This document shows positions 1,174 to 51,512 of a stretch of DNA of 64,000 nucleotides, piece after piece. The notes under the pieces were generated by a model that was given only the letters and a program-made list of their open reading frames with translations, was not told the origin of the DNA and did not search any database. Each line of letters opens with the position of its first letter. The stretch's first letter is position 1. The stretch is from NCBI GenBank assembly GCA_016699465.1, contig CP064977.1, positions 619,739 to 683,738 of the forward strand. The letters are read 5' to 3'. The stretch is from Candidatus Campbellbacteria bacterium (GTDB lineage Bacteria; Patescibacteriota; Minisyncoccia; Phycocordibacterales; EsbW-18). The position numbers were made by a program, and so were the translations under genes.

Positions 1174-1581
1174 ATGAAAGCGTACCTCAAAAACTACCGC
1201 CAATCACCACGAAAGGTTCGCCTCGTTGCGAGTCTTGTAAAAGGTAAGACGGTTGCGCGTGCGCTCGTCCTTTTGAATGCTACACAGAAACGAGCAACAG
1301 GCCCTCTTGCAAAGATGATTAATTCTGCGGCTGCAAATGCAAAGACACACGGTGTTGCAGATACAGGAGCACTGGTGATTAAAGAATTTCGTGTTGATAA
1401 GGGTTTGACGATGCACCGAGCGCTCCCACGAGCACAAGGTCGTTCATCAAAGATTGATAAGCACTCAAGTAACATCATCCTCACTCTCGCAGTAGCTCCA
1501 AGTGAGAAGCCTAAAGCACAAAGTTCAAAGCTCAAAACGAATAAAGTCACAAAACCTAAAACACCAAAAACCAAACAATAA
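1174..1581 (+). CDS. rplV: 50S ribosomal protein L22
   Basis: RKVRLVASLVKGKTVARALVLLN...IKEFRVDKG core; follows rpsS by 3 nt. Confidence 0.93.
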   Translation: MKAYLKNYRQSPRKVRLVASLVKGKTVARALVLLNATQKRATGPLAKMINSAAANAKTHGVADTGALVIKEFRVDKGLTMHRALPRAQGRSSKIDKHSSNIILTLAVAPSEKPKAQSSKLKTNKVTKPKTPKTKQ

Positions 1582-1626
1582 TTTTTTGAGCTTTATATTT
1601 TAAATTTTGAATTTCATTTATCATTT

Positions 1627-2286
1627 ATGACACATCGAGTACATCCATTTGCACACCGTCTTGGTATCTTGCGTGACTGGCAGTCACGATGGTTTGCTCG
1701 TGCAGGCGAGTATCAAGCATTTCTCCGAACCGATGTGTTGCTTCGTCGCAAAATCGCACAGCTTACTCGAATGATGTATGTGAGTGGTGTAGATATCGAA
1801 CGACGTAACTCACAGTTGCGTATCGTCATCAAAACATCCCGTCCTGGTCTTATTATTGGACGTTCTGGTGAGGGTATCGCAAAGCTTAAGAAAGAGTTGG
1901 ATGCGTTTGTGGTAAAGAATAAGCTTGCAAGCGCAGACACACTTAAGTTGGAAGTTGAAGAAATCAAATCTCCTGAATCACAGGCAGCAATTGTTGCGGC
2001 GATGGCGGTTGAGGGTATTGAAAAACGAACCCCATTCCGTCGTGTGTTGAAGCAGACTGTTGAAAAGGTTATGGCAAATCGCGATGTACAAGGAGTTCGT
2101 ATCCATCTTTCAGGGCGCCTTGGTGGTGCTGACATGGCACGACGTGAACAAATTAAGCGTGGGCGTATTCCCCTTCAGACATTCCGTGCGGATATTGATT
2201 ACGCGCATGATGAGGCACACATTCCACAGGGTCAGATTGGTATTCGTGTGTGGATTTACCGTGGGGATATCTTCGAGAAGAAATAA
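1627..2286 (+). CDS. rpsC: 30S ribosomal protein S3
   Basis: HPFAHRLGILRDWQSRWFA, KH-domain and C-terminal S3 motifs; conserved order. Confidence 0.93.
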   Translation: MTHRVHPFAHRLGILRDWQSRWFARAGEYQAFLRTDVLLRRKIAQLTRMMYVSGVDIERRNSQLRIVIKTSRPGLIIGRSGEGIAKLKKELDAFVVKNKLASADTLKLEVEEIKSPESQAAIVAAMAVEGIEKRTPFRRVLKQTVEKVMANRDVQGVRIHLSGRLGGADMARREQIKRGRIPLQTFRADIDYAHDEAHIPQGQIGIRVWIYRGDIFEKK

Positions 2287-2298
2287 ACCAATACCTAT

Positions 2299-2721
2299 AT
2301 GTTGTTTCCTAAGAAAGTAAAATACAGAAAGTGGCAGACAAAGCGCCAAAATCCAAAAAAGGCGATTACTGCAACACGTGGATCAACGCTTGCGTTTGGT
2401 TCGTTTGGTCTCAAGGCCATGTCACCATCACGTGTGACATCAAATCAGATTGAAGCATCCCGCCGTGTGATGCGACGCGCACTTGGTAAGAATGGAAACA
2501 TTTGGACTCGCGTATTTCCTGATCGTCCGTACACAGCAAAAGGTGCTGAGGTAGGTATGGGTAAAGGAAAAGGAGATCCAAAAGGATTCGTTGTTGAGGT
2601 ATTCCAAGGACGAGTATTGTTTGAAGTAGACGGTGTATCAGAGGCAATTGCACGAGAAGTATTGCGCAAAGGTGGTGCAAAAATGCCTGTGAAGACAAAG
2701 GTTGTTACACGAAGCCGTTAG
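2299..2721 (+). CDS. rplP: 50S ribosomal protein L16
   Basis: MLFPKKVKYRKWQ...GMGKGKGDPKGFVVEVFQGRVLFEV is the L16 signature. Confidence 0.93.
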   Translation: MLFPKKVKYRKWQTKRQNPKKAITATRGSTLAFGSFGLKAMSPSRVTSNQIEASRRVMRRALGKNGNIWTRVFPDRPYTAKGAEVGMGKGKGDPKGFVVEVFQGRVLFEVDGVSEAIAREVLRKGGAKMPVKTKVVTRSR

Positions 2722-2758
2722 TTGCAGAAATAGTGTGAAGACTGTAGTATACGCGAAC

Positions 2759-2950
2759 ATGACAAAAATACTCGATATACAAAAGAAAAGCGACCACGAA
2801 CTGATGGCTTTTGTAGCAGAAAAGAGGGAAGCGCTTCGACAAGATCGATTTGCCCTCTCAGGAAGTAAGGGTCGTGATGTAAAGAAGATGCGAGAGAGTA
2901 AAAAAGATGTTGCACGCGCTCTCACAGCACTCGCACAGAGAAACAAATAG
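2759..2950 (+). CDS. rpmC: 50S ribosomal protein L29
   Basis: Short basic protein MTKILDIQKKSDHELMAFVAEKREALRQDRF in the L16-L29-S17 order. Start chosen at the internal ATG 2759 of ORF 2702..2950. Confidence 0.8.
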   Translation: MTKILDIQKKSDHELMAFVAEKREALRQDRFALSGSKGRDVKKMRESKKDVARALTALAQRNK

Positions 2951-2951
2951 T

Positions 2952-3191
2952 ATGGAAACAAAAGATACAAAACAAAAAACACTTGTCGGCACTGTGGTGT
3001 CAGACAAAATGAAAGACACAATTGTGGTGCTTGTTGAGCGTTACGTCAAAGACGAGAAGTATCAGAAGTACGTTGTAAAGCACAAAAAATTTAAGGCACA
3101 CGATGCCGGTAATACAAAAAAGATTGGTGACAAGGTAACGATTGTTGCAACACGACCAATTTCAAAAGATAAGCACTTTCGAGTTGCATAA
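2952..3191 (+). CDS. rpsQ: 30S ribosomal protein S17
   Basis: KTLVGTVVSDKMKDTIVVLVERYVKDEKYQKYVVKHKKFKAHD is S17; start at ATG 2952 right after the rpmC stop. Confidence 0.9.
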   Translation: METKDTKQKTLVGTVVSDKMKDTIVVLVERYVKDEKYQKYVVKHKKFKAHDAGNTKKIGDKVTIVATRPISKDKHFRVA

Positions 3192-3200
3192 TACATTTAT

Positions 3201-3572
3201 ATGATTCAACCACGTTCAATTGTTGTGATAGCTGATAACTCCGGAGGAACTCTCGGACGTGTGTTCAAAGTGCTCGGTGGTTCAAAGCGTCGCTATGCCG
3301 AAATCGGCGACAAGGTAGTTATTTCAATTCAAGTTGCACAACCTCGTAAGACAACAAAGAAGAAAGACGTGGTACACGCGGTAGTTGTTCGTCAAACAAA
3401 GGCGTTTCGTCGTAAAGATGGTTCATACGTTCGTTTTGATGAAAACGCAGTAGTGCTTGTTGATAAGGTAAAACCAGAGCCAAAGGCAAACCGTATCTTT
3501 GGTCCAGTGCCACGCGAACTTGCTGATCACGGTTTTCAAAAGATTGTTTCAATGGCACCAGAAGTGGTATAG
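3201..3572 (+). CDS. rplN: 50S ribosomal protein L14
   Basis: MIQPRSIVVIADNSGG...RIFGPVPREL is L14. Confidence 0.93.
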   Translation: MIQPRSIVVIADNSGGTLGRVFKVLGGSKRRYAEIGDKVVISIQVAQPRKTTKKKDVVHAVVVRQTKAFRRKDGSYVRFDENAVVLVDKVKPEPKANRIFGPVPRELADHGFQKIVSMAPEVV

Positions 3573-3680
3573 ATATAAGAATAAGCACAAAGTACAAAGC
3601 ACAAAATCCAAAAAATTAAAAAATACCAAATCAAAAATTTTGAGCTTTGAAATTTGAACTTTGGATTTATCATCATCATT
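3573..3680. repeat. family-A intergenic palindromic repeat, copy 1 (gcacaaagcacaaaatccaaaaa...tttgaactttggattt)
   Basis: Near-identical to 3903..3990; related copies at 5051..5139, 5530..5632, 30985..31060 (inverted) and 45655..45776 inside the 16S gene. Fills the rplN-rplX spacer. Confidence 0.8.
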
Positions 3681-3902
3681 ATGCACGTTAAAAAAGGAGA
3701 CAAAATCACCGTACTAACCGGAAAAGACAAAGGAGCCTCAGGCACGATTCTTAAGGCGTTGCCAAAGAAGGATATGGTTATTGTTGAGGGTGTAAACAAA
3801 GCAAAACGACACCAGAAAGCACGAAAAGGTAACCAGAAAGGTCAAATTCTTGAGAAGTCTATGCCAATTCACGTGTCGAACGTAAAGAAGGTAAAAGCAT
3901 AA
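3681..3902 (+). CDS. rplX: 50S ribosomal protein L24
   Basis: [39 protein letters not shown] (KOW motif) is L24; start at ATG 3681. Confidence 0.9.
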
Positions 3903-3990
3903 AGCTCAAAGCACAAAATCCAAAAAAATTAAAAAATACCAAATCAAAAATTTTGAGCTTTGAAATTTGAACTTTGGATTTATACATATC
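3903..3990. repeat. family-A intergenic palindromic repeat, copy 2
   Basis: About 85% identical to 3573..3680; fills the rplX-rplE spacer and ends at the rplE start. Confidence 0.8.
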
Positions 3991-4554
3991 ATGATTACGG
4001 TAAAAGAAAAACAGAATAAGGCATTTGAAGCCCTCAAGGAAACACTCGGTGTTAAAAACCGCATGGCTATTCCACGTGTTACGAAGGTTATTGTGTCTGT
4101 TGGTACAGGTTCAGCAAAGGATAAGAACAAGATTGAGGTTATCCAGGATCGTTTGATGAAAATTACTGGGCAGAAACCAGCTGGACGTGTTGCAAAGAAA
4201 TCAATTGCATCATTTAAACTTCGAGAAGGACAGGTGATTGGCTATCAGATTACACTTCGTGGTGATCGTATGTACGATTTTCTTGATCGACTCATCAACA
4301 TTGCTTTTCCTCGTACGCGTGACTTCCGTGGTATTGAACGAGACTCCATTGATCCTATGGGAAACATAACTATTGGTATCAAAGAACACAGTATTTTTCC
4401 TGAAACAGCCGACGAAGAAATTCGAGATGTGTTCGGCCTTGCTGTAAGTATCGTAACAACAGCAAAGAATAAGGAAACAGCGGAGAAATTCCTTGAATAC
4501 ATCGGCATTCCATTTAAGAAAGCAGGGGAAGTAAAAACAAAGAAGAAAAAATAA
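3991..4554 (+). CDS. rplE: 50S ribosomal protein L5
   Basis: NRMAIPRVTKVIVSVGTGSA...ITLRGDRMYDFLDRLINIAFPRTRDFRG is L5. Confidence 0.93.
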   Translation: MITVKEKQNKAFEALKETLGVKNRMAIPRVTKVIVSVGTGSAKDKNKIEVIQDRLMKITGQKPAGRVAKKSIASFKLREGQVIGYQITLRGDRMYDFLDRLINIAFPRTRDFRGIERDSIDPMGNITIGIKEHSIFPETADEEIRDVFGLAVSIVTTAKNKETAEKFLEYIGIPFKKAGEVKTKKKK

Positions 4555-4562
4555 GAGACAGA

Positions 4563-4600
4563 AAAGCCCCGCCCGGCAAAGAGGGTGGGGTTTTTCCTTT
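4563..4600 (+). terminator. intrinsic-terminator-like hairpin between rplE and rpsN
   Basis: ccccgccc-ggcaaagag-gggtgggg stem-loop (one G-U) followed by ttttt ccttttct. Confidence 0.55.
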
Positions 4601-4603
4601 TCT

Positions 4604-4632
4604 ATTGCACAAAAAGCCGGGTTCTGGTAGTA
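4604..4632 (+). promoter_or_regulatory. candidate promoter TTGCAC-17-TAGTAT for rpsN, followed by ~150-nt leader
   Basis: ttgcac aaaaagccgggttctgg tagtat immediately after the terminator hairpin; the leader 4633-4780 has several palindromic segments. Confidence 0.4.
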
Positions 4633-4780
4633 TACGTGGGCTTAACTTTGAGTTGAGCTTGTCCTCTTAGAGCCAATAGGCACCGGAGGAGACCATCGCC
4701 TCGTTATCTGTCAGCCGGTCAATTCGCAAGAATTGGTCCATGGACACATCGAGAGGCAGCATTTTTTTTGGAAAAAATAT

Positions 4781-5050
4781 ATGGCACGAAAAGCAATTAT
4801 TGCACGAGACAAAAAAAGAGTAGCGATGCGAGTGAAGTCAGCTCCCAAGCGAGCAGCGCTCAAGGAAGCCCACGATTACGAGGGTCTTCAGGTATTGCGC
4901 AAAAATGCATCACCGGTTCGCACAAAGAATCGTTGTTTTAAATGCGGTCGCCCACGAGGATATATGCGCGAATTCGGCCTCTGCCGTATTTGTTTCCGTG
5001 AACTCGCAAACAAGGGAATGATTCCAGGTGTTAAGAAGGCAAGTTGGTAA
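4781..5050 (+). CDS. rpsN: 30S ribosomal protein S14 (long Zn-ribbon C+ form)
   Basis: [13 protein letters not shown]...[29 protein letters not shown] has four Cys; start at ATG 4781 inside ORF 4733..5050. Confidence 0.9.
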
Positions 5051-5139
5051 TAGAGTAAGCACAAAGCTCAAAGCACAAAATCCAAAAATATTAATCTAAC
5101 TTTTTTGAACTTTGAATTTTGAACTTTGAATTTGAAATT
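5051..5139. repeat. family-A intergenic repeat, copy 3
   Basis: aagcacaaagctcaaagcacaaaatccaaaaa...tttgaactttgaattttgaactttgaatttgaaatt in the rpsN-rpsH spacer. Confidence 0.75.
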
Positions 5140-5529
5140 ATGATAACCGATCCTCTCGCAAACTTCATAACAGCACTTCAAAACGCAGCAAAAGCTGGTG
5201 TTGAAACCGTTGTGGTACCTCATTCACGCCTCAAGGATTCCGTTGCAACTATTTTGAAAAAGGAAGGATATCTTTCAAGTGTTGAACGTAAGGGTAAAAA
5301 GACAAGTAAGATTGAGGTAACGCTTGCATATGACAATGGTGAAGCACACGTTCATGGTGTAAAGCGCATTTCAAAACCATCTCGTCGTATGTATCTTGGA
5401 GTTTCTGAGATTTACGGAGTGAAGAATGGATACGGACATCTCGTTCTCTCAACGCCAGAAGGTATTATGACTGGTCAGCAAGCAAAGAAAGCAAAGGTTG
5501 GAGGAGAAGTCCTTTTTGAGATTTGGTAA
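5140..5529 (+). CDS. rpsH: 30S ribosomal protein S8
   Basis: MITDPLANFITALQNA...GHLVLSTPEGIMTGQQAKK..GGEVLFEIW is S8. Confidence 0.93.
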   Translation: MITDPLANFITALQNAAKAGVETVVVPHSRLKDSVATILKKEGYLSSVERKGKKTSKIEVTLAYDNGEAHVHGVKRISKPSRRMYLGVSEIYGVKNGYGHLVLSTPEGIMTGQQAKKAKVGGEVLFEIW

Positions 5530-5632
5530 AAGATAATAAAAGCATAAAACACAAAGCACAAAATCCAAAAATAAAATCTAAATCTAATTTTTTGAACTTT
5601 GAATTTTAGATTTTGAACTTACACCATCATTT
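5530..5632. repeat. family-A intergenic repeat, copy 4
   Basis: cacaaagcacaaaatccaaaaataaaatctaaatctaattttttgaactttgaattttagattttgaactt in the rpsH-rplF spacer. Confidence 0.75.
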
Positions 5633-6166
5633 ATGTCCCGCATCGGAAAACAACACATCACACTACCACCGAAGACAGAACTCACTGTTGTGAATGGCGA
5701 CGTGGTTGTAAAAGGTCCTCTCGGTGAACTTCGCCGATCATTTAAGACTGATATTTCTATTTCAGTTGTTGATGGTGTTGTGACACTCGTGCCAAAAGAA
5801 AATCCAGAAGAGCACTCAGCATTGTGGGGAACATACGCATCACACATCAAGAACATGGTTGCAGGTGTTAACAAACCATACGAAAAGAAACTCATTCTCG
5901 ATGGGGTTGGATATCGTTCTGAAGTAAAAGGAAAGGAGCTTGTTATGCAACTCGGTTTTTCTCACCCGGTTGTGCTCCAGATTCCTGATGGCATTACGCT
6001 TTCAGTTGAGAAGAACACCATGACAATGTCTGCAATTGATAAAGAAGTTCTTGGACAGTTTGCCGCAACTGTGCGTGCACAGAAGCCACCAGAGCCATAC
6101 AAAGGAAAGGGGTTCCGATACTCAGATGAAGTGATTCGTCGCAAGGAAGGAAAGAGGGCGGCGTAG
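5633..6166 (+). CDS. rplF: 50S ribosomal protein L6
   Basis: MSRIGKQHITLPPKTELTV..GDVVVKGPLGEL...VGYRSEVKGKELVMQLGFSHPV is L6. Confidence 0.93.
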   Translation: MSRIGKQHITLPPKTELTVVNGDVVVKGPLGELRRSFKTDISISVVDGVVTLVPKENPEEHSALWGTYASHIKNMVAGVNKPYEKKLILDGVGYRSEVKGKELVMQLGFSHPVVLQIPDGITLSVEKNTMTMSAIDKEVLGQFAATVRAQKPPEPYKGKGFRYSDEVIRRKEGKRAA

Positions 6167-6206
6167 GGTAGAGATTAGAGACTAGATACTGAAGATTAGA
6201 AAAAAT

Positions 6207-6554
6207 ATGAAAGTAACATCAAAAAAAGAAAAACGAGTTCGCCGACAAGGACGCATCCGCGCGAAGATTTCTGGTACGGAAACGCGACCACGTTTGGCTG
6301 TGTTTAAATCAAACCGATTTACCACACTTCAAGTTATTGATGATACGAAAGGGATGACGCTTGTTGCAGGTACAACGAAGGGTATGAAGAAGGGAACTGC
6401 AAAAGAAAAAGCAGCTGAACTCGGAGAGACTGTTGCAAAGGCCGCTCTCGCAAAAAAGATTACGACAGTTGTCTTTGATCGAGGGGGATTTGCATACACA
6501 GGTGTTATTCAAGAGGTTGCGGACGGTGCGCGTAAGGGGGGGCTAACATTCTAA
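6207..6554 (+). CDS. rplR: 50S ribosomal protein L18
   Basis: RQGRIRAKISGTETRPRLAVFKSNRFTTLQVIDD...GFAYTGVIQEVADGARKGGL is L18. Confidence 0.92.
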   Translation: MKVTSKKEKRVRRQGRIRAKISGTETRPRLAVFKSNRFTTLQVIDDTKGMTLVAGTTKGMKKGTAKEKAAELGETVAKAALAKKITTVVFDRGGFAYTGVIQEVADGARKGGLTF

Positions 6555-6650
6555 GAAGAAGTACGGAACAATATCAAATTTCAAATAGCAAATAACCAAA
6601 CTAAAACTAACCACTAACGTCTCACTTCCAATTTCCAACATTTATTATTT

Positions 6651-7328
6651 ATGACCGACGACATTCGCACAACAGAAAATGAGGTTGATATTACAGATGC
6701 TGAAACTGTGGAAGAAATTGCTACAGCAGAAGCTATTGTTGCTCCACGTAGTACTGGCCCTGTAAGTGCGTCACGCGAAGATCGACGCATGCAGAAAAAC
6801 TCTCGCCGTTCACCACGTACTCGTGCGCCACGTATTAAACCTGAATTTGATCAACGTATTATTGATATCCGTCGTGTGACTCGTGTGGTTGCTGGAGGAC
6901 GTCGCTTCAGTTTCAGTGTATGTGTTGTTGCAGGTAACCGCCGTGGTTCGGTTGGTGTAGGTACAGGAAAAGCGGGCGATACAGCAGTTGCTGTAGAAAA
7001 GGCATACCGAAGCGCTCTCAAAAACAAAATCATCATTTCACAAACAGAAGATGGTTCAATTCCACACGAAGTACAAGTGAAGTACTCAAGTGGTATTGTG
7101 AAGCTCTATCCTGCTCCAGGACGCGGTATTATTGCTGGAGGTGCAGTACGTGACGTGCTCGAACTCGCAGGGGTACGCGGTGTTGGTGCAAAAATTCTTT
7201 CACGCAGTAAGAACAAGCTCAATAACGCGGCGGCAACAATCAAGGCGCTCTCGCAACTCACAAAGAACATTAAGACGCACAATATACAAAAGCACGAAAC
7301 ACGAAGCACGAAACACGAAGCAAATTAA
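6651..7328 (+). CDS. rpsE: 30S ribosomal protein S5 (N- and C-terminal extensions)
   Basis: VTRVVAGGRRFSFSVCVVAGNRRGSVGVGTGKAGD...GRGIIAGGAVRDVLELAGV is S5; no L30 gene follows. Confidence 0.92.
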   Translation: MTDDIRTTENEVDITDAETVEEIATAEAIVAPRSTGPVSASREDRRMQKNSRRSPRTRAPRIKPEFDQRIIDIRRVTRVVAGGRRFSFSVCVVAGNRRGSVGVGTGKAGDTAVAVEKAYRSALKNKIIISQTEDGSIPHEVQVKYSSGIVKLYPAPGRGIIAGGAVRDVLELAGVRGVGAKILSRSKNKLNNAAATIKALSQLTKNIKTHNIQKHETRSTKHEAN

Positions 7329-7373
7329 ATATTCTTTCGGATTTCGATATTCGAATTTCGGATTTACACAAAT

Positions 7374-10376: not shown

Positions 10377-10402
10377 TTTTGTACCGATATATCGGTACAA
10401 AA
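10377..10402. repeat. perfect palindrome ttttGTACCGATATATCGGTACaaaa (copy 1 of 3)
   Basis: 26-bp perfect palindrome in the adk-map spacer; the same 20-bp core recurs at 47119-47138 and 51489-51508. Confidence 0.85.
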
Positions 10403-18163: not shown

Positions 18164-18188
18164 GGAGATAAAATTTTGATAAAGTCGA
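18164..18188 (+). repeat. 25-nt motif ggagataaaattttgataaagtcga (copy 1 of 2)
   Basis: Identical 25-mer at 25681..25705; both copies lie ~15-20 nt upstream of promoter-like elements (here TTGCAT-17-TAGTAT). Confidence 0.7.
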
Positions 18189-18283
18189 TTACTATAGGTG
18201 GTTGCATTTCTTTAGGTCGGGGCGTAGTATTTCATCAGATTATACCCAGTTGCTTGCGAAACTATCTAGTGTGGAGGTATCCA

Positions 18284-18868
18284 GTGTCTTCCAAAGAGAT
18301 TATTGGAAGAAGGTTAATTCTCCGTCCAATACGAGAGGGTGATCTCCAACTTCTCTACGAGTGGCGTAATGAGATACATTTCCGAAACCGATGCTCAAAC
18401 CGGAAGTATAAAGTTACTTTCCAGGAGTTTATCTCTGAAATTCGTGCTGATTTTTCAAAAGATCGACACGAACAGTGGATAATCTTGAGGAAGCCATCAC
18501 GGGGTCCGGTTGGAACAGTTTACACCTACAACTTTGACAAAGACGGAAAACACAGCTTTCTAAGTCTGTATGCCGTTCCGCGTCTCTGGGGTTCGGGTCT
18601 CGGGGTTGAGTGTCTGGCTCTTCTCGCGGAGTATCTGTTCGGCGAGTTTGAGCTGTACAAGTTATATATGGACGTATATGAGTACAACGCTCGAGTTGTT
18701 TCAGCACTAACAAAAGCGGGACTTTCCGTTGAGGGAAGATTCAGGGGTCATAGACTTTTAAGAGGAAAGCGCTACGATGTTGTTAGGTTTGCTCTATACC
18801 CAGACGTGTTGTTCAAACACGAAAAGCTCATAAGGTCTTTTCAGGTACACAACGCGGAAAGGAGGTGA
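18284..18868 (+). CDS. GNAT family N-acetyltransferase
   Basis: RRLILRPIREGDLQLLYEWRN...GLGVECLALLAEYLFGEFELYKLYMDVYEYNARVV; GTG 18284 preceded by ggagg. ORF 18137 upstream extension overlaps the terminator hairpins. Confidence 0.65.
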   Translation: MSSKEIIGRRLILRPIREGDLQLLYEWRNEIHFRNRCSNRKYKVTFQEFISEIRADFSKDRHEQWIILRKPSRGPVGTVYTYNFDKDGKHSFLSLYAVPRLWGSGLGVECLALLAEYLFGEFELYKLYMDVYEYNARVVSALTKAGLSVEGRFRGHRLLRGKRYDVVRFALYPDVLFKHEKLIRSFQVHNAERR

Positions 18869-19676: not shown

Positions 19677-19887
19677 CACAACAAAAAATATCGAACTGTT
19701 TACGTGGAGTATTAAAAAAACAAATCCACTCAATCCTCTTGGTCATGATGTGACTGTTTGCACGGCAGGGTTTGTTGTACGGGAATCAAAAACATATGTC
19801 TGGGTTGCTAACTCCGAAGGAAATAGCGGATACCTAGATATCAACCGTATACCTAAAAATGATATTATTTCTAGGGCTAGGTTTTAA
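19660..19887 (+). CDS. hypothetical protein
   Basis: 75-aa ORF overlapping the previous stop. Confidence 0.3.
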   Translation: MLKKNSTTKNIELFTWSIKKTNPLNPLGHDVTVCTAGFVVRESKTYVWVANSEGNSGYLDINRIPKNDIISRARF

Positions 19888-20062
19888 AATAGGAGAATCT
19901 GGTCTATAGGGGATAGAAATACCCTTACATACATGGTTTTTTGTTTGTTTGAGTGGAAGCTACTGAACCATAACGGTGAGGTTGACAATGTGTTTCTTTG
20001 TGATATAATAGAAATCAGAAAACATGTGGGACGACCCCCTCATGTAGAAATAGGAGGATGCC

Positions 20063-20560
20063 ATGAACTGGGTGACGGGATCTGTTCTCGCGCTCGTCTG
20101 TTGGGCGGCGATTTACGTTTTCGCCGCAAAAGCTGCGCACAACGGGGCAGAGATCAATCTTGTCCTCGAAGTGCTCGGATCCCTCGCTGTCGTGGCCTTC
20201 ATGTGCCGTAACATCAGCTGGGGCATGATCAAGGCCAACGAGGTCACCCTCGAGTCCTGCCTCTACGGACTTGCGGGCGGTGTGCTCTACGGACTGGGGC
20301 TGTATTTTTCCCTCTCCGTGTTCACGAGCACTCCCGAACGTATCAACGAGAGTTCGGTTATCGCTGGGATGAATCCCGTCCTGGCGGTGGTTCTCATCCT
20401 CATCGTCCAGAAGTTGTTCCCAAAGTTCATCAGTGAGGTGGGGACGCTTCGGCCGACGCAGTGGGCCGGTGTACTGTTCGCCGCTCTGGCCCTTGTCCTG
20501 ATTACGTGGGACGAGGGGTGGACCGAAGGTATCACCACTGCTGTTAAGAAGTTCTTTTAA
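20063..20560 (+). CDS. hypothetical membrane protein in GC-rich island
   Basis: aggagga RBS 7 nt before ATG; 165 aa with 4-5 TM helices; GC much higher than flanks. The antisense ORF 20015..20590 is a shadow. Confidence 0.55.
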   Translation: MNWVTGSVLALVCWAAIYVFAAKAAHNGAEINLVLEVLGSLAVVAFMCRNISWGMIKANEVTLESCLYGLAGGVLYGLGLYFSLSVFTSTPERINESSVIAGMNPVLAVVLILIVQKLFPKFISEVGTLRPTQWAGVLFAALALVLITWDEGWTEGITTAVKKFF

Positions 20561-23411: not shown

Positions 23412-25046
23412 ATGAATATTCCATATTGTGAAGGTACGCCAAATTTTCTTTATATTTTTGATACTAGTTTTGCTCCAACCCTGCTTTTTTATGCTTATGT
23501 GCCCGTCGTGTGTGTTGCTCTTTTTTTGGGAATTTTTGTTTTAATAAAAGACAAGAATTCATTACTTAGTAAGATTTTATTTGCAATTTCTCTTGCGTTT
23601 TCACTTTGGACTCTAAATATAATTGCGCAGTGGTTGACCCCCGCGTCACACCTCAACTACTTTTTTTGGCAGATTACACCACTTTTAGAGATTTTTATTC
23701 CGATTCTTCTTGTTTATTTTGCTTATGTGTTTTTATGGAAAAAAGATATAAGTATTTTAGGTAAAAATATTGGTTTTTTGGCCCTGGTCCCAGTTTTGAT
23801 GTTGCTTCCGACAACATACAACATGAGTGCTTTTGATCCGAGTGCCTGTGAATCTGTAGTTGGACCACTTCTTGGATATGTGTACGGAATCGAAATTTTA
23901 TCTATATTGTTTATAGTTTTTCTTGGCGTAAGGAGATATGCACAAAAAAATATTTCCATCTCTTTTTTACAGGTGTTGTTAGTTACTCTTGGCTCAGCTC
24001 TGTTTCTAGGTATTTTTTCGGCAACAAATATTTTTGGTGAATTAACCAAGCTATATGAAATAAACCTCATTGGTCCGATAGGGATGGTTTTATTTCTTGC
24101 TCTGCTTGCATACATGATGGTGAAGTTTTATGTCTTTAACACTCGTGTTATCGGAACACAAATGCTTGTGGCGGTGCTCTCTGTTCTTGTGTTCGCGATG
24201 TTGTTTGTGAGAAAAATTGAAAATATTAGGTACGTTATTATTGTGACTTTAGGATTAGTTTTTGCCGTCGGGGTTGCATTGGTTAAAAGTGTGAAGCACG
24301 AAATTACCTTGCGCGAAGAAACGCAGAAGCTTGCGAAGAATTTGGAATTTGCGAACATGCGTCAACTTGAGACCATGCGGTTCATCACACACGAAGTTAA
24401 GGGATATTTGACGGACGCGTCTGCGGGGTTTGATGCCATCACGAGTGGAAGTTTTGGTCCTGTTGCCTCAGACATTAAAGACATGTCACAAGAAGCACTT
24501 GCCCGTGTGCAGTATGGTGTGAATGAAGTAAAAAACTTCTTGCATGTGTCTGACTTTAAGACGGGAAAGGTAACATATGCCATGGAGAAAATAAATCTCA
24601 CAGAGCTTCTCGTAAAAAGTGCTGAAGAGCTCAAAAAACGTGCGTCAGATAAAAAACTTACACTGGCGGTGAGCGTTCCAGAAGGGGATATGTGCACGAT
24701 CTTGGGAGATGCTGATTATATCGTCAATCACATCTTGAAAAACCTTATCGATAACGCCATCAACTACACACCAGAGGGTTCGGTGACGGTGTCTCTTGCA
24801 CACAAAGATGGTAAGGTGCTCTTCTCGGTGAAAGATAGTGGTGTTGGTTTGACGGATGAGGATAAGAAAGTGCTCTTCACTGAGGGTGGACGTGGAAAAG
24901 ATTCACGCACCGTGAACGTGCACAGTACTGGTTATGGTCTCTTTATCGCAAAGCAAATTGTTACTGCACACAACGGACGCATCTGGGCCGAGTCCGGAGG
25001 ACGAGGTAAAGGCTCCACTTTCCTCGTCGAATTCCCCGAAGTGTAG
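23412..25046 (+). CDS. sensor histidine kinase with N-terminal multi-TM sensor domain
   Basis: About 8 TM helices, then HisKA (RFITHEVKGYL) and HATPase_c (LIDNAINYT, DSGVGL, GYGLFIAKQIV). Confidence 0.85.
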   Translation: MNIPYCEGTPNFLYIFDTSFAPTLLFYAYVPVVCVALFLGIFVLIKDKNSLLSKILFAISLAFSLWTLNIIAQWLTPASHLNYFFWQITPLLEIFIPILLVYFAYVFLWKKDISILGKNIGFLALVPVLMLLPTTYNMSAFDPSACESVVGPLLGYVYGIEILSILFIVFLGVRRYAQKNISISFLQVLLVTLGSALFLGIFSATNIFGELTKLYEINLIGPIGMVLFLALLAYMMVKFYVFNTRVIGTQMLVAVLSVLVFAMLFVRKIENIRYVIIVTLGLVFAVGVALVKSVKHEITLREETQKLAKNLEFANMRQLETMRFITHEVKGYLTDASAGFDAITSGSFGPVASDIKDMSQEALARVQYGVNEVKNFLHVSDFKTGKVTYAMEKINLTELLVKSAEELKKRASDKKLTLAVSVPEGDMCTILGDADYIVNHILKNLIDNAINYTPEGSVTVSLAHKDGKVLFSVKDSGVGLTDEDKKVLFTEGGRGKDSRTVNVHSTGYGLFIAKQIVTAHNGRIWAESGGRGKGSTFLVEFPEV

Positions 25047-25047
25047 G
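25010..25047 (+). repeat. 38-bp direct repeat, copy 1 (3' end of the kinase gene)
   Basis: aggctccactttcctcgtcgaattccccgaagtgtagg; 32/38 identical to 25645..25682. The two copies flank the CYTH gene. Confidence 0.8.
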
Positions 25048-25069
25048 CATGGTGTAGTATGTGTGGATT

Positions 25070-25639
25070 ATGAAAAGAGAGGTTGAAATATTGGCGGAGG
25101 TATTTGATACGAAGAAAGCGGCTCTACGCAAGCTCAAAGGTTTGACGTTTCAGGGCAATAAAAAGACCCTAGACGTGTATTTTTTTGACCCTAAGAGAAA
25201 AGACCTACAACCAGACAAGCGTGGTCAACTAAAGCAGTGTTTGCGGGTTAGAAGTAAGGATGGAAAAGCATCCGTTGCATATAAGGTAGACCATTTTGAT
25301 ACGAAAGGGGTGTGGCTCTATTCAGATGAATATGAGACAGCGGTTGAGAATTTTTTGAAGACAGAAGAGATTTTTAAGAAGTTGGGATTGAAAGAATTGG
25401 TGCGGATAGAAAACACCAAGTCAACATTTGTAAATGATATCTATGAAGTTGTTCTTGAAGATGTTAAGGGTTTAGGTCTTTTTATGGAGGTTGAAAGGCA
25501 CAATGTTGGCGCTCGGGAAAATATTGTAAAGGTGAAAAAAGAGATTGTGGATTGGATACAAAAAATGGGTATACGTGTGAGTGCTGAGCTTACGATGGGT
25601 AAACCAGAATTAATGTTACGAAAGAAAAAGGAGAAGTAG
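25070..25639 (+). CDS. CYTH-domain protein (CyaB/thiamine-triphosphatase-like)
   Basis: MKREVEILAEVFD start (ExE motif) and later acidic and basic CYTH-like residues; 189 aa. Confidence 0.5.
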   Translation: MKREVEILAEVFDTKKAALRKLKGLTFQGNKKTLDVYFFDPKRKDLQPDKRGQLKQCLRVRSKDGKASVAYKVDHFDTKGVWLYSDEYETAVENFLKTEEIFKKLGLKELVRIENTKSTFVNDIYEVVLEDVKGLGLFMEVERHNVGARENIVKVKKEIVDWIQKMGIRVSAELTMGKPELMLRKKKEK

Positions 25640-25644
25640 GGCAC

Positions 25645-25682
25645 AGGCTCCACCCTCCTCGTCAAATTCCCTGGGGTGTAGG
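25645..25682 (+). repeat. 38-bp direct repeat, copy 2
   Basis: aggctccaccctcctcgtcaaattccctggggtgtagg immediately after the CYTH stop; abuts the 25-mer motif. Confidence 0.8.
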
Positions 25683-25705
25683 AGATAAAATTTTGATAAA
25701 GTCGA
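25681..25705 (+). repeat. 25-nt motif ggagataaaattttgataaagtcga (copy 2 of 2)
   Basis: Identical to 18164..18188. Confidence 0.7.
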
Positions 25706-25718
25706 AAGTTGCTAAACC

Positions 25719-25746
25719 TTGACAACAGTTTTTGTAGTGATATAGT
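25719..25746 (+). promoter_or_regulatory. sigma70-like promoter TTGACA-16-TATAGT
   Basis: ttgaca at 25719-25724, tatagt at 25741-25746; drives a ~200-nt unit ending at the terminator at 25929. Confidence 0.55.
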
Positions 25747-25928
25747 AAATTTACCCACTATTTTGGGCACACATACTATGACAACAACTTCTCACATTTC
25801 GAATATTGAAACATCTTGGATGCGCGGTAGCGTTGTGCTTCCTGCATTCAAGAAAAACGCTCGTTTTTCAGCGTTTTCAAGCCATAGGCGGTGTGTTCCG
25901 AGTACTTAATTTTCTTATTGAGTCTTTC

Positions 25929-25966
25929 AAACACCCCGCCTAGCAAGGCGGGGTGTTTCGTTCTTT
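25929..25966 (+). terminator. rho-independent terminator
   Basis: aacaccccgcc-tagcaa-ggcggggtgtt followed by tcgttcttt; lies just upstream of the ABC exporter RBS. Confidence 0.7.
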
Positions 25967-26015
25967 AACAACCGAATACCCAACAAACACTCTTCCAACG
26001 AAAGGGGAGAATACT

Positions 26016-27845
26016 ATGAGCAACGAGATGGAGGCAAAGGCACCGGCAACGTTCAAGGAGTTTCTGGCGGAGTTCAAAGAGACATGTGACACTGTTCGCT
26101 ATGTGTTTCGTCTCACCGATTCTCCGGACGCACGCACGTGGCTCTACAGGAAGTACTTTCTTGTGGTTGTACTGATTCTCATGAGCATGTTTCAACCGAG
26201 AGTGACGGGAATGATTTTCAAAGGCGTCGTGAACAACAACGCCAACCGAATCATCCTGTCTGTCGCTCTTCTTGGCGCACTCATGCTCTTCGAGAAACTT
26301 GTTGCGCTTCTCTACTGGAGGGCGCACGAGTATCTCTTTGGACTGTCCACAGGAAATCTCTATGTACGGATTACCGAGCGGTTTTTTGAAAAGTCGCCCG
26401 GGCAACACCGTCATGTGAAGTCGCTCAACTACGAAAGTGTTAACAAAGGCAAAGACAAAGCTTTTGATATGCACGTTAATCAAGTTCCTGAGCTCGCGGA
26501 AGCAACGCTCACCATCGTGATCGCGTACGCTCTCGTGTGGACTGTTTCACCGTTTGGTGGAATAGTACTCGGGATTGCCATGTGCATTAACATTGCATGG
26601 TCAATCTACCTGAATTATCTCGTCGCGGTCGTGTGCACTCCCATCGAGCGCGACTTCAGTCGCTTCAGGCGTTTTTTTGCTGAGGTGTTTCGTCTCTTTG
26701 AACGTGTGTACGTCTCAAACCGAAAACAGTTTGAAGTCGAACGCATCACACAGCGGTGGCAAGATCTTGCTGTTCGTGATCGAACGTTTTGGTTGCGTCA
26801 CGGCAAGCATGCGACTGCTATGGATATGGTTATGGTTCTCGCAGCACTGATTGTGATTGGTCGTGAATCACTGCACAGTATAGTAAACGACCAAGGCGCA
26901 GGTGCTGTTGCTGTGTTGTATCCACTCTTCGCGTGGTCGAGGCAGATTATCGGCGATATTTGGCGCATCAGACACACTGAACGCCGGATTTACGAGTCGG
27001 TTTCGTCGGTACGGGTTATGCGCGAAACACTCGACATCGTTCCTGATGTTGTTGACAGTGAAAACGCGCGCACACTCGATGCTGAGCACGCGTTGACGCT
27101 TGCGTTCGAGAACATCTCGTACTCGTATCCTCATTCAAACGGCACAATCCAGAACGTTTCGTTCTCGGTGTGTCCGGGAGAAAAAATCGCACTTATTGGT
27201 CCCACCGGGTCTGGTAAGTCAACGATTGAGTATCTTGCGATGCGCTTCATGGACCCGACATCTGGGCGCGTGTGCATCAACGGGCGTGACATTCGGGAGT
27301 ATCAAAGCGGTTCGCGTCTCAACGCAATCGGATACATTCCGCAGAAGCCCCTCATCTTTGATGGAACCGTGCGGGAGAATCTCCTGTACGGTGTTTCTCC
27401 GCATGAGGGGTGTGTGTGGACCGACGCAGAACTTCTCGAACTCATGAACGATCTCGCGATTGACTTCGGGGTGCGTCCAGAGGGTGAAAATCCTCTCGAC
27501 ATCATCGTCGGTCGTGACGGTGTTCAGCTTTCGGGTGGGCAGGCACAACGTCTCGCAATCGGAGCGGCGGTTATCAAACAGCCGAAGCTTCTCATTGTTG
27601 ACGAGGCAACGAGTGCGCTTGATTCGTCCACGGAAACGCAGACACTTGAAGGTTTGCGTAAGTGGATTAACGGATCCGGTATGCTCGTTGTAGCGCATCG
27701 TCTGTCGACGGTGCGCGATGCCGACCGCATTATCGTTCTTGCGAACGGTAAAATTGAAGCGGTCGGAACGTCGTTTGACGAGCTCGTTGGTTCTTCGGAA
27801 ACGTTCCGGAAACTGATTGCTCATCAGGACCATCTGTTGGGGTAG
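26016..27845 (+). CDS. ABC transporter, fused permease/ATP-binding exporter
   Basis: N-terminal 6-TM domain; NBD with GPTGSGKST Walker A, LSGGQAQRLAIGAAV signature, LLIVDEATSALD Walker B. Start at ATG 26016 after aaaggggag. Confidence 0.88.
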   Translation: MSNEMEAKAPATFKEFLAEFKETCDTVRYVFRLTDSPDARTWLYRKYFLVVVLILMSMFQPRVTGMIFKGVVNNNANRIILSVALLGALMLFEKLVALLYWRAHEYLFGLSTGNLYVRITERFFEKSPGQHRHVKSLNYESVNKGKDKAFDMHVNQVPELAEATLTIVIAYALVWTVSPFGGIVLGIAMCINIAWSIYLNYLVAVVCTPIERDFSRFRRFFAEVFRLFERVYVSNRKQFEVERITQRWQDLAVRDRTFWLRHGKHATAMDMVMVLAALIVIGRESLHSIVNDQGAGAVAVLYPLFAWSRQIIGDIWRIRHTERRIYESVSSVRVMRETLDIVPDVVDSENARTLDAEHALTLAFENISYSYPHSNGTIQNVSFSVCPGEKIALIGPTGSGKSTIEYLAMRFMDPTSGRVCINGRDIREYQSGSRLNAIGYIPQKPLIFDGTVRENLLYGVSPHEGCVWTDAELLELMNDLAIDFGVRPEGENPLDIIVGRDGVQLSGGQAQRLAIGAAVIKQPKLLIVDEATSALDSSTETQTLEGLRKWINGSGMLVVAHRLSTVRDADRIIVLANGKIEAVGTSFDELVGSSETFRKLIAHQDHLLG

Positions 27846-30963: not shown

Positions 30964-30984
30964 TGAGGCACCGCCGAGGCGGTG

Positions 30985-31060
30985 CAAGTTCAAAATCCAA
31001 ATATCAAAATCCAAAATATATTTTTTTGAGTTTTGTACTTTGAGCTTTGTGCTTGTTTCA
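30985..31060. repeat. family-A repeat, inverted/partial copy
   Basis: caaaatccaaatatcaaaatccaaaatat...tttttgagttttgtactttgagctttgtgcttg is the reverse-complement flavour of the ribosomal-operon spacer repeat. Confidence 0.6.
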
Positions 31061-31065
31061 TCTCG

Positions 31066-31467
31066 GGGGATGCCTCGTTTCGACAATGTGACAATTGTTA
31101 TACGTGCGTGGTGGAAGTGTGCTGACTTCCTTAAAACAGTACAAACATACCTGCAAAATCTGCAGTCAAAAGTCCATACTTCACAGTATCGGATTTCGCT
31201 TACGCTCTTGCATAAAGATTCTTGTCCTTCGGGACAAGTTGCCTAAGCGACGTCTTCTGACATCTTCGTTCGAGAGGTGTTAGCGGGTGTAAACCAATTC
31301 GAACTAGCGTACTCGGATGTTCCGACGAATACGTAACACTAATCGGTTCTGGCACGCTATCGTTTCGCCTGTCTTTAAGATAGTGTGTAAGACCTCAAGA
31401 CAACGCTAGATTACGTAGACTCGTATGGCATTACATATTGGACGTGGGGTCAAACCCACCATCTCCA
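31066..31467 (+). ncRNA. ssrA: tmRNA (ssrA), one-piece
   Basis: 5' GGGGAUGCCUCGUUUCGAC pairs with 3' ...GUGGGGUCAAACCCAC CAUCUCC A. Internal tag reading frame ends gct tac gct ctt gca taa (..AYALA*), as tmRNA tags do. Confidence 0.75.
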
Positions 31468-37494: not shown

Positions 37495-37500
37495 AACGCT

Positions 37501-37537
37501 GTCCGTCCCTATGGATTCGAACCATGAACCGCCGAGG
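37501..37537 (-). repeat. diverged partial copy of tRNA 3' half (T-arm plus acceptor)
   Basis: gtccgtccctatggattcgaaccatgaaccgccgagg resembles the 3' half of the intact tRNA 40 nt away; the 5' portion is unrelated. Confidence 0.6.
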
Positions 37538-37580
37538 ATATCTTTGATATGAAACTTCGTTCGGACTATGCAAATCTGTG

Positions 37581-37654
37581 TCCGCCCCCATGGACTCGAA
37601 CCATGAACCGCCGAGGTATAAGCTCGGTGCTCTAACCAATTGAGCTAGGGGCGG
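37581..37654 (-). tRNA. tRNA with anticodon UAU (Ile, AUA-decoding)
   Basis: Minus-strand cloverleaf: acceptor CCGCCCC/GGGGCGG, D arm GCTC-AATTGGTTA-GAGC, anticodon arm CCGAG-CTTATAC-CTCGG, T arm CATGG-TTCGAGT-CCATG. Anticodon TAT read by eye; C1-G72 start unusual. Confidence 0.7.
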
Positions 37655-37758
37655 ACACAAATTTTCAAAAATCCTCACTCGTTTCCATATCTACGATACA
37701 CCAGGTTCACTCGCTCGGAGAAGAAAACAAGTTCTCTTCTCCTCACTCGTTGCCTGCC

Positions 37759-37796
37759 GTAAGCTCGGTGCTCTAACCAATTGAGCTAGGGGCGGG
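37759..37796 (-). repeat. partial copy of tRNA 5' half (acceptor through anticodon stem)
   Basis: gtaagctcggtgctctaaccaattgagctaggggcgg is identical to the 5' half of the intact tRNA at 37617-37654; no 3' half follows. Confidence 0.7.
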
Positions 37797-37938
37797 CAAC
37801 AGTAGCTATTGTGATATCTGAAGTGCTTGAATGCAACTGTTTAATAACCACGTGGTCAAACGTTGTACGCTATAAAAGACGGTCGTCTTCTATGGCGTAC
37901 ATGTCTTTGCCTAGCAGTTTAGCTGTAACTTTACTACA

Positions 37939-44549: not shown

Positions 44550-46135
<1,586 letters not shown>

Positions 46136-47114: not shown

Positions 47115-47142
47115 CAACTGTACCGATATATCGGTACAGTTG
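47115..47142. repeat. perfect palindrome caacTGTACCGATATATCGGTACAgttg (copy 2 of 3)
   Basis: 28-bp perfect palindrome; same 20-bp core as 10380-10399 with different, still palindromic flanks. Confidence 0.85.
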
Positions 47143-51484: not shown

Positions 51485-51512
51485 ACTCTGTACCGATATA
51501 TCGGTACAGAGT
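51485..51512. repeat. perfect palindrome actcTGTACCGATATATCGGTACAgagt (copy 3 of 3)
   Basis: 28-bp perfect palindrome after murC. Confidence 0.85.

Follow-up and report, generated by a model that had tools for sequence, protein, structure and literature searches.

The stretch analysed here is a window of 64,000 nt from a Candidatus Campbellbacteria genome (contig CP064977.1), in which the gene of a sensor histidine kinase is followed by a gene for a CYTH/CyaB-like triphosphate tunnel metalloenzyme (Table 1). Directly behind the CYTH gene lies a non-coding relic of the kinase 3′ end. Copies of this end are called K1, K2 and K3, K1 being the functional one. The relic in turn abuts a 25-mer, GGAGATAAAATTTTGATAAAGTCGA, which stands upstream of a predicted sigma-70-type promoter and recurs elsewhere in the window. 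Comparison with related genomes suggests that the kinase-end repeat is probably the scar of a homology-anchored, partly illegitimate recombination and not a target-site duplication. The 25-mer appears to be a conserved promoter-upstream element of unrelated, mostly accessory genes in several lineages of the Candidate Phyla Radiation (CPR, or Patescibacteria).

Table 1. Features of the kinase-CYTH region and of the second 25-mer locus in the window
Feature	Position	Strand	Remarks
Sensor histidine kinase gene	23412..25046	+	544 aa; N-terminal part with multiple transmembrane segments, HATPase_c (Pfam 1.1e-22)
K1, functional last 42 nt of the kinase gene (..GKGSTFLVEFPEV*)	25005..25046	+	
Native ABC-F leader stub ggtgtagtatg	25051..25061	+	with -10-like TAGTAT at 25055-25060
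CYTH/CyaB-like triphosphate tunnel metalloenzyme gene	25070..25639	+	189 aa, complete
K2, non-coding 42-nt relic of the kinase 3′ end	25640..25681	+	local alignment
25-mer copy B, apparent conserved promoter-upstream element	25681..25705	+	
Sigma-70-type promoter TTGACA-16-TATAGT	25719..25746	+	extended TG; 11/12 match in scan
Structured promoter-to-terminator unit, 216 nt	25753..25968	+	terminator 25929-25958, 13 bp
25-mer copy A	18164..18188	+	left edge of the lineage-specific 1.8-kb segment 18090-19925
Promoter-like TTGCAT-17-TAGTAT	18202..18230	+	by reading; below the stringent scan threshold

The kinase protein is 100% identical to NCBI protein IPJ70_03620. A second assembly (Logan L001) is 100% identical to the window across 13.6 kb, so the repeat arrangement is not an artefact of one assembler. 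Relatives were represented by fetched contigs that encode the closest kinase homologues and are referred to here by L-numbers. Six of them belong to Campbellbacteria: L002, L003, L004, L005, L109 and L110, with kinases 80%, 77%, 77%, 63%, 60% and 55% identical to that of the window, respectively. The L004 and L003 kinase genes share 92.7% nucleotide identity. A metagenome scan with the C-terminal half of the kinase returned only kinases at most 47% identical, which were of no use for comparing junctions.

The original prediction, made from the window alone, had reported that the last 38 nt of the kinase gene recur behind the CYTH stop codon with 32 of 38 positions identical. This is a true copy. 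The 38-mer at 25010-25047 and its counterpart at 25645-25682 differ at 6 positions, and an agreement of at least 32/38 has a binomial chance of about 5e-14 per comparison or about 3e-9 across 64,000 offsets (the exact 38-mer, searched at up to 3 mismatches, matches only itself). When the kinase alleles of the relatives are used instead, which read GTGST ('ggcac') at this point, the repeat is 42 nt long (25005-25046 versus 25640-25681), and in local alignment the homology of K2 begins exactly 42 nt before the end. K1 and K2 of the window differ at 8 of the 42 positions. K2 is nearest to the allele of the L109 type, with an alignment score of 64 against the L109 kinase end and 53 against its own. 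Extending the repeat beyond 'ggcac', into the end of CYTH that lies upstream, was considered and rejected, because CYTH homologues natively have this tail. The 593 nt between K1 and K2 consist of a 23-nt spacer and the CYTH open reading frame (ORF) and nothing else. The kinase 3′ end also contains a 7-bp inverted repeat at 25000-25028 (GACGAGG...CCTCGTC, DNA fold z = -2.05), of which K2 lacks the left arm; it could be a structural hotspot for an illegitimate joint.

The stretch from the kinase gene to rplT-rpmI-infC is a variable islet in the Campbellbacteria clade. In L002 the order is the same as in the window: kinase, K1, 23-nt spacer with the leader stub, CYTH (96% amino acid identity), K2, the 21-nt core of the 25-mer and a TTGACA promoter. 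In L003, K1 and the same spacer start are followed by a leader and an ABC-F gene, and a degenerate relic (cactttctttgttgaattccttggggcctag) stands directly after the ABC-F stop. Three copies of the kinase end are present in L005, one at the kinase itself, a second (K2) behind a convergent gene of 214 aa and ahead of the ABC-F leader, and a third (K3) after ABC-F, the last being followed by the 25-mer-like AGGATAAAATTTTTCTAAAGTCGA and TTGACA. Two relatives have a single copy and lack an inserted gene. In L109 the kinase stop is followed by the segment that in L003 follows the relic, including a Cys-rich ORF of 64 aa, and then by an exact 21-mer, a 12/12 promoter and a radical SAM gene. In L004 the kinase stop is followed immediately by the 25-mer-type element GGAATAAAATTTTGATAAAGT and a promoter. 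There are no relics in L110, where ABC-F lies three genes downstream of the kinase. The comparison of related genomes that had been proposed as a check accordingly finds CYTH polymorphic at this site (present in L002; absent from L003, L004, L005 and L109), and it also finds the 'empty' form, in L004. As the relic is also found behind ABC-F (L003, L005), duplication of the kinase end is not tied to CYTH; it marks the junctions of gene modules.

The relics differ in length and in affinity. Counted in local alignments back from the stop end, they are 42 nt long in the window and in L002, 31 nt in L003, 28-31 nt for K3 of L005 and about 39-44 nt, with indels, for K2 of L005. The L003 relic agrees with its best-matching kinase end at 25 of 31 positions. 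K3 of L005 scores 44 against the L003 kinase end and 20 against its own; K2 of L005 scores 47 against L004 and 34 against its own, and it matches a 24-nt consensus of the kinase ends at 24/24 positions. The K2 sequences of the window and L002 differ at 9 of 42 positions. In the window and the fetched loci, such sequences were found only beside the kinase.

Some of the other genes of this islet may be worth recording. Downstream of the kinase and the 25-mer promoter, the Cys-rich 64-aa ORF occupies 8321-8515 in L003 and 5064-5258 in L109. A radical SAM gene is found at 5452-6486 in L109 (Radical_SAM only) and at 9050-10336 in L005 (radical SAM plus SPASM), and the window has an ABC exporter there. 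Their presence beside a sensor kinase suggests a variable islet resembling those for ribosomally synthesised and post-translationally modified peptides.

The CYTH gene itself is not foreign cargo, as indicated by its C-terminal tail, by the leader in front of it and by its location in distant Paceibacteria, where it is a highly conserved neighbour of this family of kinases. The protein matches Pfam CYTH (1.7e-11; 44.8 bits, cutoff 23.2) and TIGR00318 cyaB (72.8 bits, cutoff 57.95), and its nearest solved structure is PDB 7ns8, the triphosphate tunnel metalloenzyme Saci_0718 (1.2e-5). The N-terminal signature of CYTH proteins is ExExK; residues 4-8 (25079-25093) read EVEIL here and in CPR homologues, so that the signature lysine is not at the expected place. 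The tail is native, the homologues likewise ending in ..GKPELMLRKK... The family is 70-76% identical across Paceibacteria families, and the neighbouring kinases of the same architecture are 33-34% identical. In distant Paceibacteria CYTH lies within 2-4 kb of such a kinase, upstream of it in L112 and L113 and downstream in L111.

The stub ggtgtagtatg is found ahead of CYTH in the window and L002 and ahead of ABC-F in L003 and L005, and the window and L003 are homologous up to exactly 25061, the last position of the stub. A search for ABC-F homologues gave five proteins, and the contexts of two of these were used to define the native leader; no kinase-end relics were found in the two additional contexts. 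The motif (c/g)TTGTAGTATGAGGGG(G)T(A/G)TG precedes ABC-F behind unrelated genes in L110, L114 and L115-118, which indicates that it is ABC-F's own leader. The distance from TAGTAT to the start codon is 6-8 nt for ABC-F and 9 nt for CYTH; a Shine-Dalgarno sequence is absent, and TAGTAT is likely a -10 box for near-leaderless CYTH and ABC-F mRNAs. Leaderless mRNAs from -10 boxes adjoining ORFs are known in Deinococcus-Thermus (PMC12340547).

The kinase gene is a recombination mosaic with a breakpoint near 24300. When the window was compared among 7 relatives, L002 grouped with L003 and L004 in the N-terminal part of the gene (nucleotide identity 0.81-0.83), with L109 remote at 0.48, whereas the C-terminal part unites the window with L002 and L109 (0.85-0.88), apart from L003, L004 and L005. 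The identity of L109 to the window is 0.48 in the first part and 0.87 in the second. The incongruence of the two groupings points to a homologous crossover within the anchor gene, such as belongs to homology-facilitated illegitimate recombination (HFIR). Along the alignment of the window with L002, identity steps up at about 24320 and stays between 0.8 and 0.96 as far as the relic, CYTH included; beyond 25702, a position just within the 3′ end of 25-mer copy B, it collapses. Third-position identity between the two is 0.63 in the C-terminal part of the kinase; CYTH has a pS of 0.31 and a dS of 0.40, and the dS of the whole kinase is about 1.5. Since the divergence of the kinase C-terminal part, CYTH and the relic is similar, a tract of about 1.4 kb, from the middle of the kinase to the 25-mer, would share an ancestry more recent than that of the remainder.

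These observations are, in our opinion, accounted for reasonably well by a recombination scar. DNA from relatives would enter the cell and pair homologously inside the kinase gene, which would serve as the left anchor. The right end of the incoming DNA would then be joined illegitimately, in the manner of HFIR, some tens of nucleotides before the stop codon of the resident kinase. The incoming kinase end would become the functional K1 and the old resident end would be stranded as the non-coding K2, by which the last 30-45 nt would be duplicated. K2 would stay ahead of the DNA that formerly followed the kinase, here the 25-mer and its promoter. The closer similarity of the relics to the kinase ends of other genomes is expected if K1 comes with the donor and K2 is the old resident. 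Later recombination between K1 and K2 could delete the intervening gene, producing 'empty' forms such as L004 and L109. Moreover, double crossovers may use the C-terminal half of the kinase on the left and K2 with the 25-mer on the right as homology arms, moving modules between lineages. CYTH would be a secondary arrival, having taken the place of ABC-F in L003 and L005, 9 nt behind the -10-like leader stub.

HFIR, with one homologous and one illegitimate end, has been described during natural transformation in Acinetobacter, Pseudomonas stutzeri and S. pneumoniae (PMC3240628), and natural competence is documented in CPR for Saccharibacteria only (PMC10187176 and PMC10633639). As in HFIR, one end lies in a homologous gene, the mosaic kinase, and the other would be joined at a non-homologous point with a microhomology of a few bases at most; the junction positions vary between events. 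Unlike in HFIR, the last 30-45 nt of the anchor are duplicated by a joint upstream of the anchor's end, with no deletion of resident DNA, and the process is read here solely from comparative scars in uncultivated CPR genomes. At the joint between ABC-F and the relic, 'CAC(C)' is common to the native downstream sequence of ABC-F (taaaaACACCcgc in L110 and L114) and to the kinase (ctCCACCttc), a possible microhomology.

Several points speak against the scar. A microhomology of 3 nt is weak evidence, and DNA uptake and RecA-type exchange have to be assumed for this organism. K1 and K2 of L002 share derived states (..cctgcagtttag), for which gene conversion or a recent event would be needed. The ABC-F relic can alternatively be aligned as 'ggcac' plus a 10-nt deletion, in which case its boundary equals that of the CYTH relic and a single shared junction is favoured. 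Finally, the 7 genomes of the clade seem too few to order the events.

Another possibility, though an improbable one, is that the relic is what remains of a second full copy of the kinase gene (a tandem segmental duplication or a paralogue) that was nearly all deleted, CYTH or ABC-F merely having lain between the two copies. The end of a gene is the expected remnant of a decayed duplicate, and the occurrence of CYTH upstream of the kinase in some distant relatives and downstream in another implies local reordering. However, several independent duplications would be needed, each of them cut to the last 30-45 nt, including three copies in L005, as well as a precise loss of everything between K1 and the ABC-F leader. 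None of the seven loci contains an intermediate with a longer kinase fragment. Moreover, relics that are nearer to the alleles of other genomes than to their own point to exchange between lineages.

The original prediction had taken CYTH for a site-specific or target-duplicating insertion, a reading that is only partly borne out. Extended to the relatives, this would make cassettes of CYTH, ABC-F and the L005 gene of 214 aa, mobilised by a site-specific recombinase for which the kinase 3′ end is the attachment site, in the manner of integrons or att sites, the site being duplicated each time and the newest cassette lying beside the kinase. We consider this very unlikely in spite of some attractive features. 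Three different genes each have a kinase-end copy after or before them, 'empty' single-site forms exist, and the extra gene of L005 stands beside the kinase as at an attI site. The arrangement is also like that of integron cassettes in that single-gene units, each with a related short sequence, form an array beside a fixed site, with the newest unit of L005 nearest to it. Elements that integrate into the 3′ ends of genes, such as tRNA-targeting islands or e14 and phage 21 in icd of E. coli, leave attL and attR as direct repeats on opposite sides of the insert, one of them the functional end of the gene and the other a displaced, incomplete copy of it. Here too the duplicated end of the target gene (K1 and K2) flanks the insert.

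The differences are as follows. Transposition or site-specific recombination would be expected to produce a single boundary, and the boundaries of the relics differ between events, which counts against both. The relic is also found behind ABC-F, and L005 has one copy more, ahead of ABC-F. Within about 6 kb of the kinase in both directions, the called genes and Pfam matches of the window include no integrase or recombinase, and none was found in the stretches fetched from L003, L005, L109 and L110. The insert is a single housekeeping-like gene of 570 bp, CYTH, with neither a transposase nor an integrase of its own, and the repeats are not an identical core, as the 8 differences in 42 nt show. 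They are also far longer than usual target-site duplications, the fixed short direct repeats of transposons and insertion sequences being absent. None of the 25 longest of the 72 inverted-repeat pairs in a whole-window scan lies at the insert ends, although no search was aimed at terminal inverted repeats. An attC-like hairpin was not found either: single-strand folds of 25630-25720 gave z = +0.46 and +1.57 for the two strands, and the relic regions of L005 gave +0.44 and +2.54. The integron reading was rejected, since the structure of the region of relic and 25-mer does not exceed that of shuffled sequences; there is no integron integrase among the called genes, and the 'site' would be the end of the kinase ORF. 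Finally, the kinase-end copies are confined to the neighbourhood of the kinase, and the cargo consists of conserved neighbours with a native leader of their own, CYTH standing behind the leader stub of another gene, ABC-F.

Least probable, even though it may add to the recombination model rather than replace it, is a duplication kept by selection as a functional repeat and not a neutral scar, in which the end of the kinase gene coincides in part with regulatory DNA of the gene behind it (the -35 region of the leaderless ABC-F/CYTH promoter, or a far-upstream part of the 25-mer promoter) and only insertions that duplicate the overlap survive: TAGTAT does lie 17 nt after TTCCC(C/T) of the kinase end in the window, L003 and L005, the L005 copy ahead of the ABC-F leader does agree fully with the consensus and leaderless -10 boxes have the precedent in Deinococcus-Thermus given above, but TTCCCC shares only 3/6 positions with TTGACA at a site missed by the promoter scan, the relics before the 25-mer decay about neutrally (as seen between the window and L002 and in L003), and the 25-mer works without a kinase end at 18164, in L109 and in L003. 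Read as a recombination scar, the repeat is an ordinary kind of thing, unusually legible.

The second subject is the 25-mer. Its occurrence at two loci is confirmed, with exactly two identical copies in the window and none in 100 shuffles. Looser searches, with up to 3-4 mismatches, of the window and about 600 kb of other loci gave only spurious matches in coding sequence. The first base of copy B, at 25681, is also the final G of the TAG of the relic. The copies had been placed 15-20 nt upstream of a -35/-10 pair; the association with promoters holds, and the distance is 13 nt at both loci. They had further been described as a portable UP-element or activator site. The sequence is indeed portable and promoter-associated, but its position is not that of a classical UP element. 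The classical position of UP elements is -38 to -59, in A/T-rich DNA directly upstream of the -35 box, and the 25-mer ends 13 nt before that box, at about -51 to -75. Because it lies beyond the UP position, an activator or architectural site fits better.

The 25-mer shares its A/T richness, a phasing of 10-11 bp and a fixed distance to the -35 box with UP elements, A-tract bends and class I activator or integration host factor (IHF) sites. Unlike UP elements, it has specific G and C positions that are conserved across CPR classes. It contains an 11-bp phased repeat (ATAAAATTTTG / ATAAAGTnnnn) and a direct repeat of GATAAA. The consensus of IHF sites is WATCAANNNNTTR. The reverse strand of the window copies, TATCAAAATTTTA, fits this consensus, as do L002, L004 and L109; the orthologous copies of L003 and L005 do not, and these variants (..TTTTTCTAAAGT) break both the IHF core and the direct repeat. 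The 25-mer probably binds an activator or an architectural protein, or acts as bent DNA with phased A/T tracts.

At both loci of the window the promoter leads into a different kind of unit. The promoter-like pair at copy A lies upstream of a GNAT gene (start codon GTG at 18284, ribosome-binding site GGAGG at 18273-18277). The segment 18090-19925, which contains copy A, the GNAT gene and three small ORFs, has no counterpart in L003, L005 and L109, whose homology to the window resumes at about 19926-19994. In L003 the LOG gene is directly followed by the conserved promoter that corresponds to 19982-20009 of the window. At this second islet no relic of the LOG gene end was seen on reading 19800-20120, which means that relic formation is not general to segments bounded by the 25-mer. 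The promoter at copy B precedes the structured unit of Table 1 (minimum free energy -76.1 kcal/mol, z = -8.0), which ends 48 nt before the ATG of the ABC-exporter gene at 26016 and contains a 43-codon ORF (25779-25910) without a Shine-Dalgarno sequence. Rfam, at gathering and permissive thresholds, gave nothing credible in 25640-26030. Presumably driven by this promoter, the unit is a candidate leader/attenuator or small RNA.

The 21-nt core of the 25-mer is GRRATAAAATTTTGATAAAGT, and it lies 16 nt before the -35 box in the window and 15-17 nt before it in other CPR. A search of 185,579 species-representative genomes for exact copies of the core returned 23 loci, 17 in CPR and 6 outside, with CPR status assigned by record title or by the context of motif and promoter; the 6 non-CPR matches look random. 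The CPR loci include two Taylorbacteria contigs and eight contigs of one Saccharibacteria metagenome-assembled genome (MAG) with nine copies; the others are from further Saccharibacteria, Paceibacterota, Nealsonbacteria, Giovannonibacteria and three more MAGs. By automatic scoring, the best -35/-10 pair is found at a gap of 15-17 nt in 13 of 24 CPR instances, and in more by eye, versus 0 of 6 non-CPR instances. Several of the downstream genes start 6-7 nt after the -10 box, i.e. they are leaderless. Downstream of the element are the GNAT gene and the structured ABC-exporter leader in the window, radical SAM/SPASM genes in L002, L005 and L109, and RhuM/Fic, ORF6N, zeta toxin, Bro-N, RadC, HicB-like and DUF4258 genes in other CPR. 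Among the copies at the orthologous position behind the kinase, those of the window, L002, L004 and L109 have an invariant core and those of L003 and L005 a nearly invariant one, although the intergenic DNA around it is unalignable. In the Saccharibacteria MAG CAZQKU01 (L008, L015, L016, L017, L020 and L023), the 21-mer is situated inside a largely conserved module of about 70 nt, AGTTATCCCCAC - 21-mer - TTTTGTGATTTTTGGGC - TTGCA. The module occurs at least 9 times, ahead of genes of toxin-antitoxin or mobile type.

A literature search found no described CPR promoter motif, and the 25-mer is a newly recognised addition to the known promoter-upstream elements, with a reach across CPR lineages. 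Two cautions apply to this reading. The 21-mer was not found again in other kinase-linked loci (about 600 kb), which makes the element sporadic and not universal. In addition, the matches were picked by an exact 21-mer, and the conservation of the core across phyla is therefore partly by construction. A phage origin was considered as well and is unsupported, with 0 matches in 2.9 million viral contigs.

The main rival takes the 25-mer to be non-regulatory: it would be the conserved terminus of a small module, mobile or recombining, that is passed horizontally between CPR genomes as a 'mobile promoter' or att-like joint. We regard this as possible but unlikely. The 25-mer does mark the left edge of two lineage-specific segments of the window and the breakpoint of homology between the window and L002. 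In other CPR it is followed by accessory, toxin-antitoxin or mobile-type genes, and although sporadic among genomes it has multiple copies in one MAG, conserved there over about 70 nt together with their flanks. 'Putative mobile promoters', in which the same upstream sequence precedes non-homologous genes, have been described (Matus-Garcia et al. 2012, PMC3488235), and the 25-mer resembles them in being shared before non-homologous genes both within the window and between genomes, among the relatives as well as in other CPR. Unlike in those cases, only the 21-25-nt upstream element is shared and the core promoter is not. The distance of 15-17 nt to the -35 box is fixed while the DNA in between is not conserved, which argues for a constraint linked to RNA polymerase. 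Furthermore, the element has been kept at the orthologous site although synonymous sites of the kinase are near saturation (third-position identity between the window and L005 is 0.41-0.53), and this conservation means that mobility is not required as an explanation. There is no inverted or direct partner copy to mark a right end, and the absence from the viral contigs counts against a mobile module too.

A few other features of the window may be mentioned. The tRNA-Ile(TAT) gene (37580-37654, minus strand) is accompanied by a copy of its 3′ half 42 nt downstream (37500-37537, 92%) and a copy of its 5′ half about 105 nt upstream (37760-37798, 97%). These half copies (37500-37798) are gene-end relics like those of the kinase. 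A family of long AT-rich hairpin repeats (AAAGCACAAAG... / ...TTTGAACTTTG) occurs at 1490-7366, 30981-31069 and 45661-45763, in many intergenic spacers and just before the tmRNA gene; one copy lies within the 16S rRNA gene, where the Rfam match is 1594 nt against a model of 1533 nt. A perfect 22-nt palindrome, CTGTACCGATATATCGGTACAG, is present at 47118-47139 and 51488-51509, with a 91% copy at 10379-10400, and looks like an operator.

Gene regulation and genome plasticity in CPR/Patescibacteria are nearly unexplored, and in a 2024 review of the group the words promoter, sigma and motif are absent. As a speculation to which we give little weight, the 21-nt core may be the operator of an unrecognised activator or architectural protein, widespread in CPR, for accessory and islet genes. 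Together with K2-like relics it could provide 'joints' at which natural transformation swaps promoter-equipped modules without the enzymes of mobile elements. For annotation, the locus is a warning that a gene between direct repeats is not automatically a 'cassette'. The kinase-end relics are a readable record of gene reshuffling in reduced genomes, and this record points to homologous and illegitimate recombination between relatives and not to classical mobile elements. An element conserved from Campbellbacteria to Saccharibacteria would offer a concrete experimental handle in transformable strains of Saccharibacteria.

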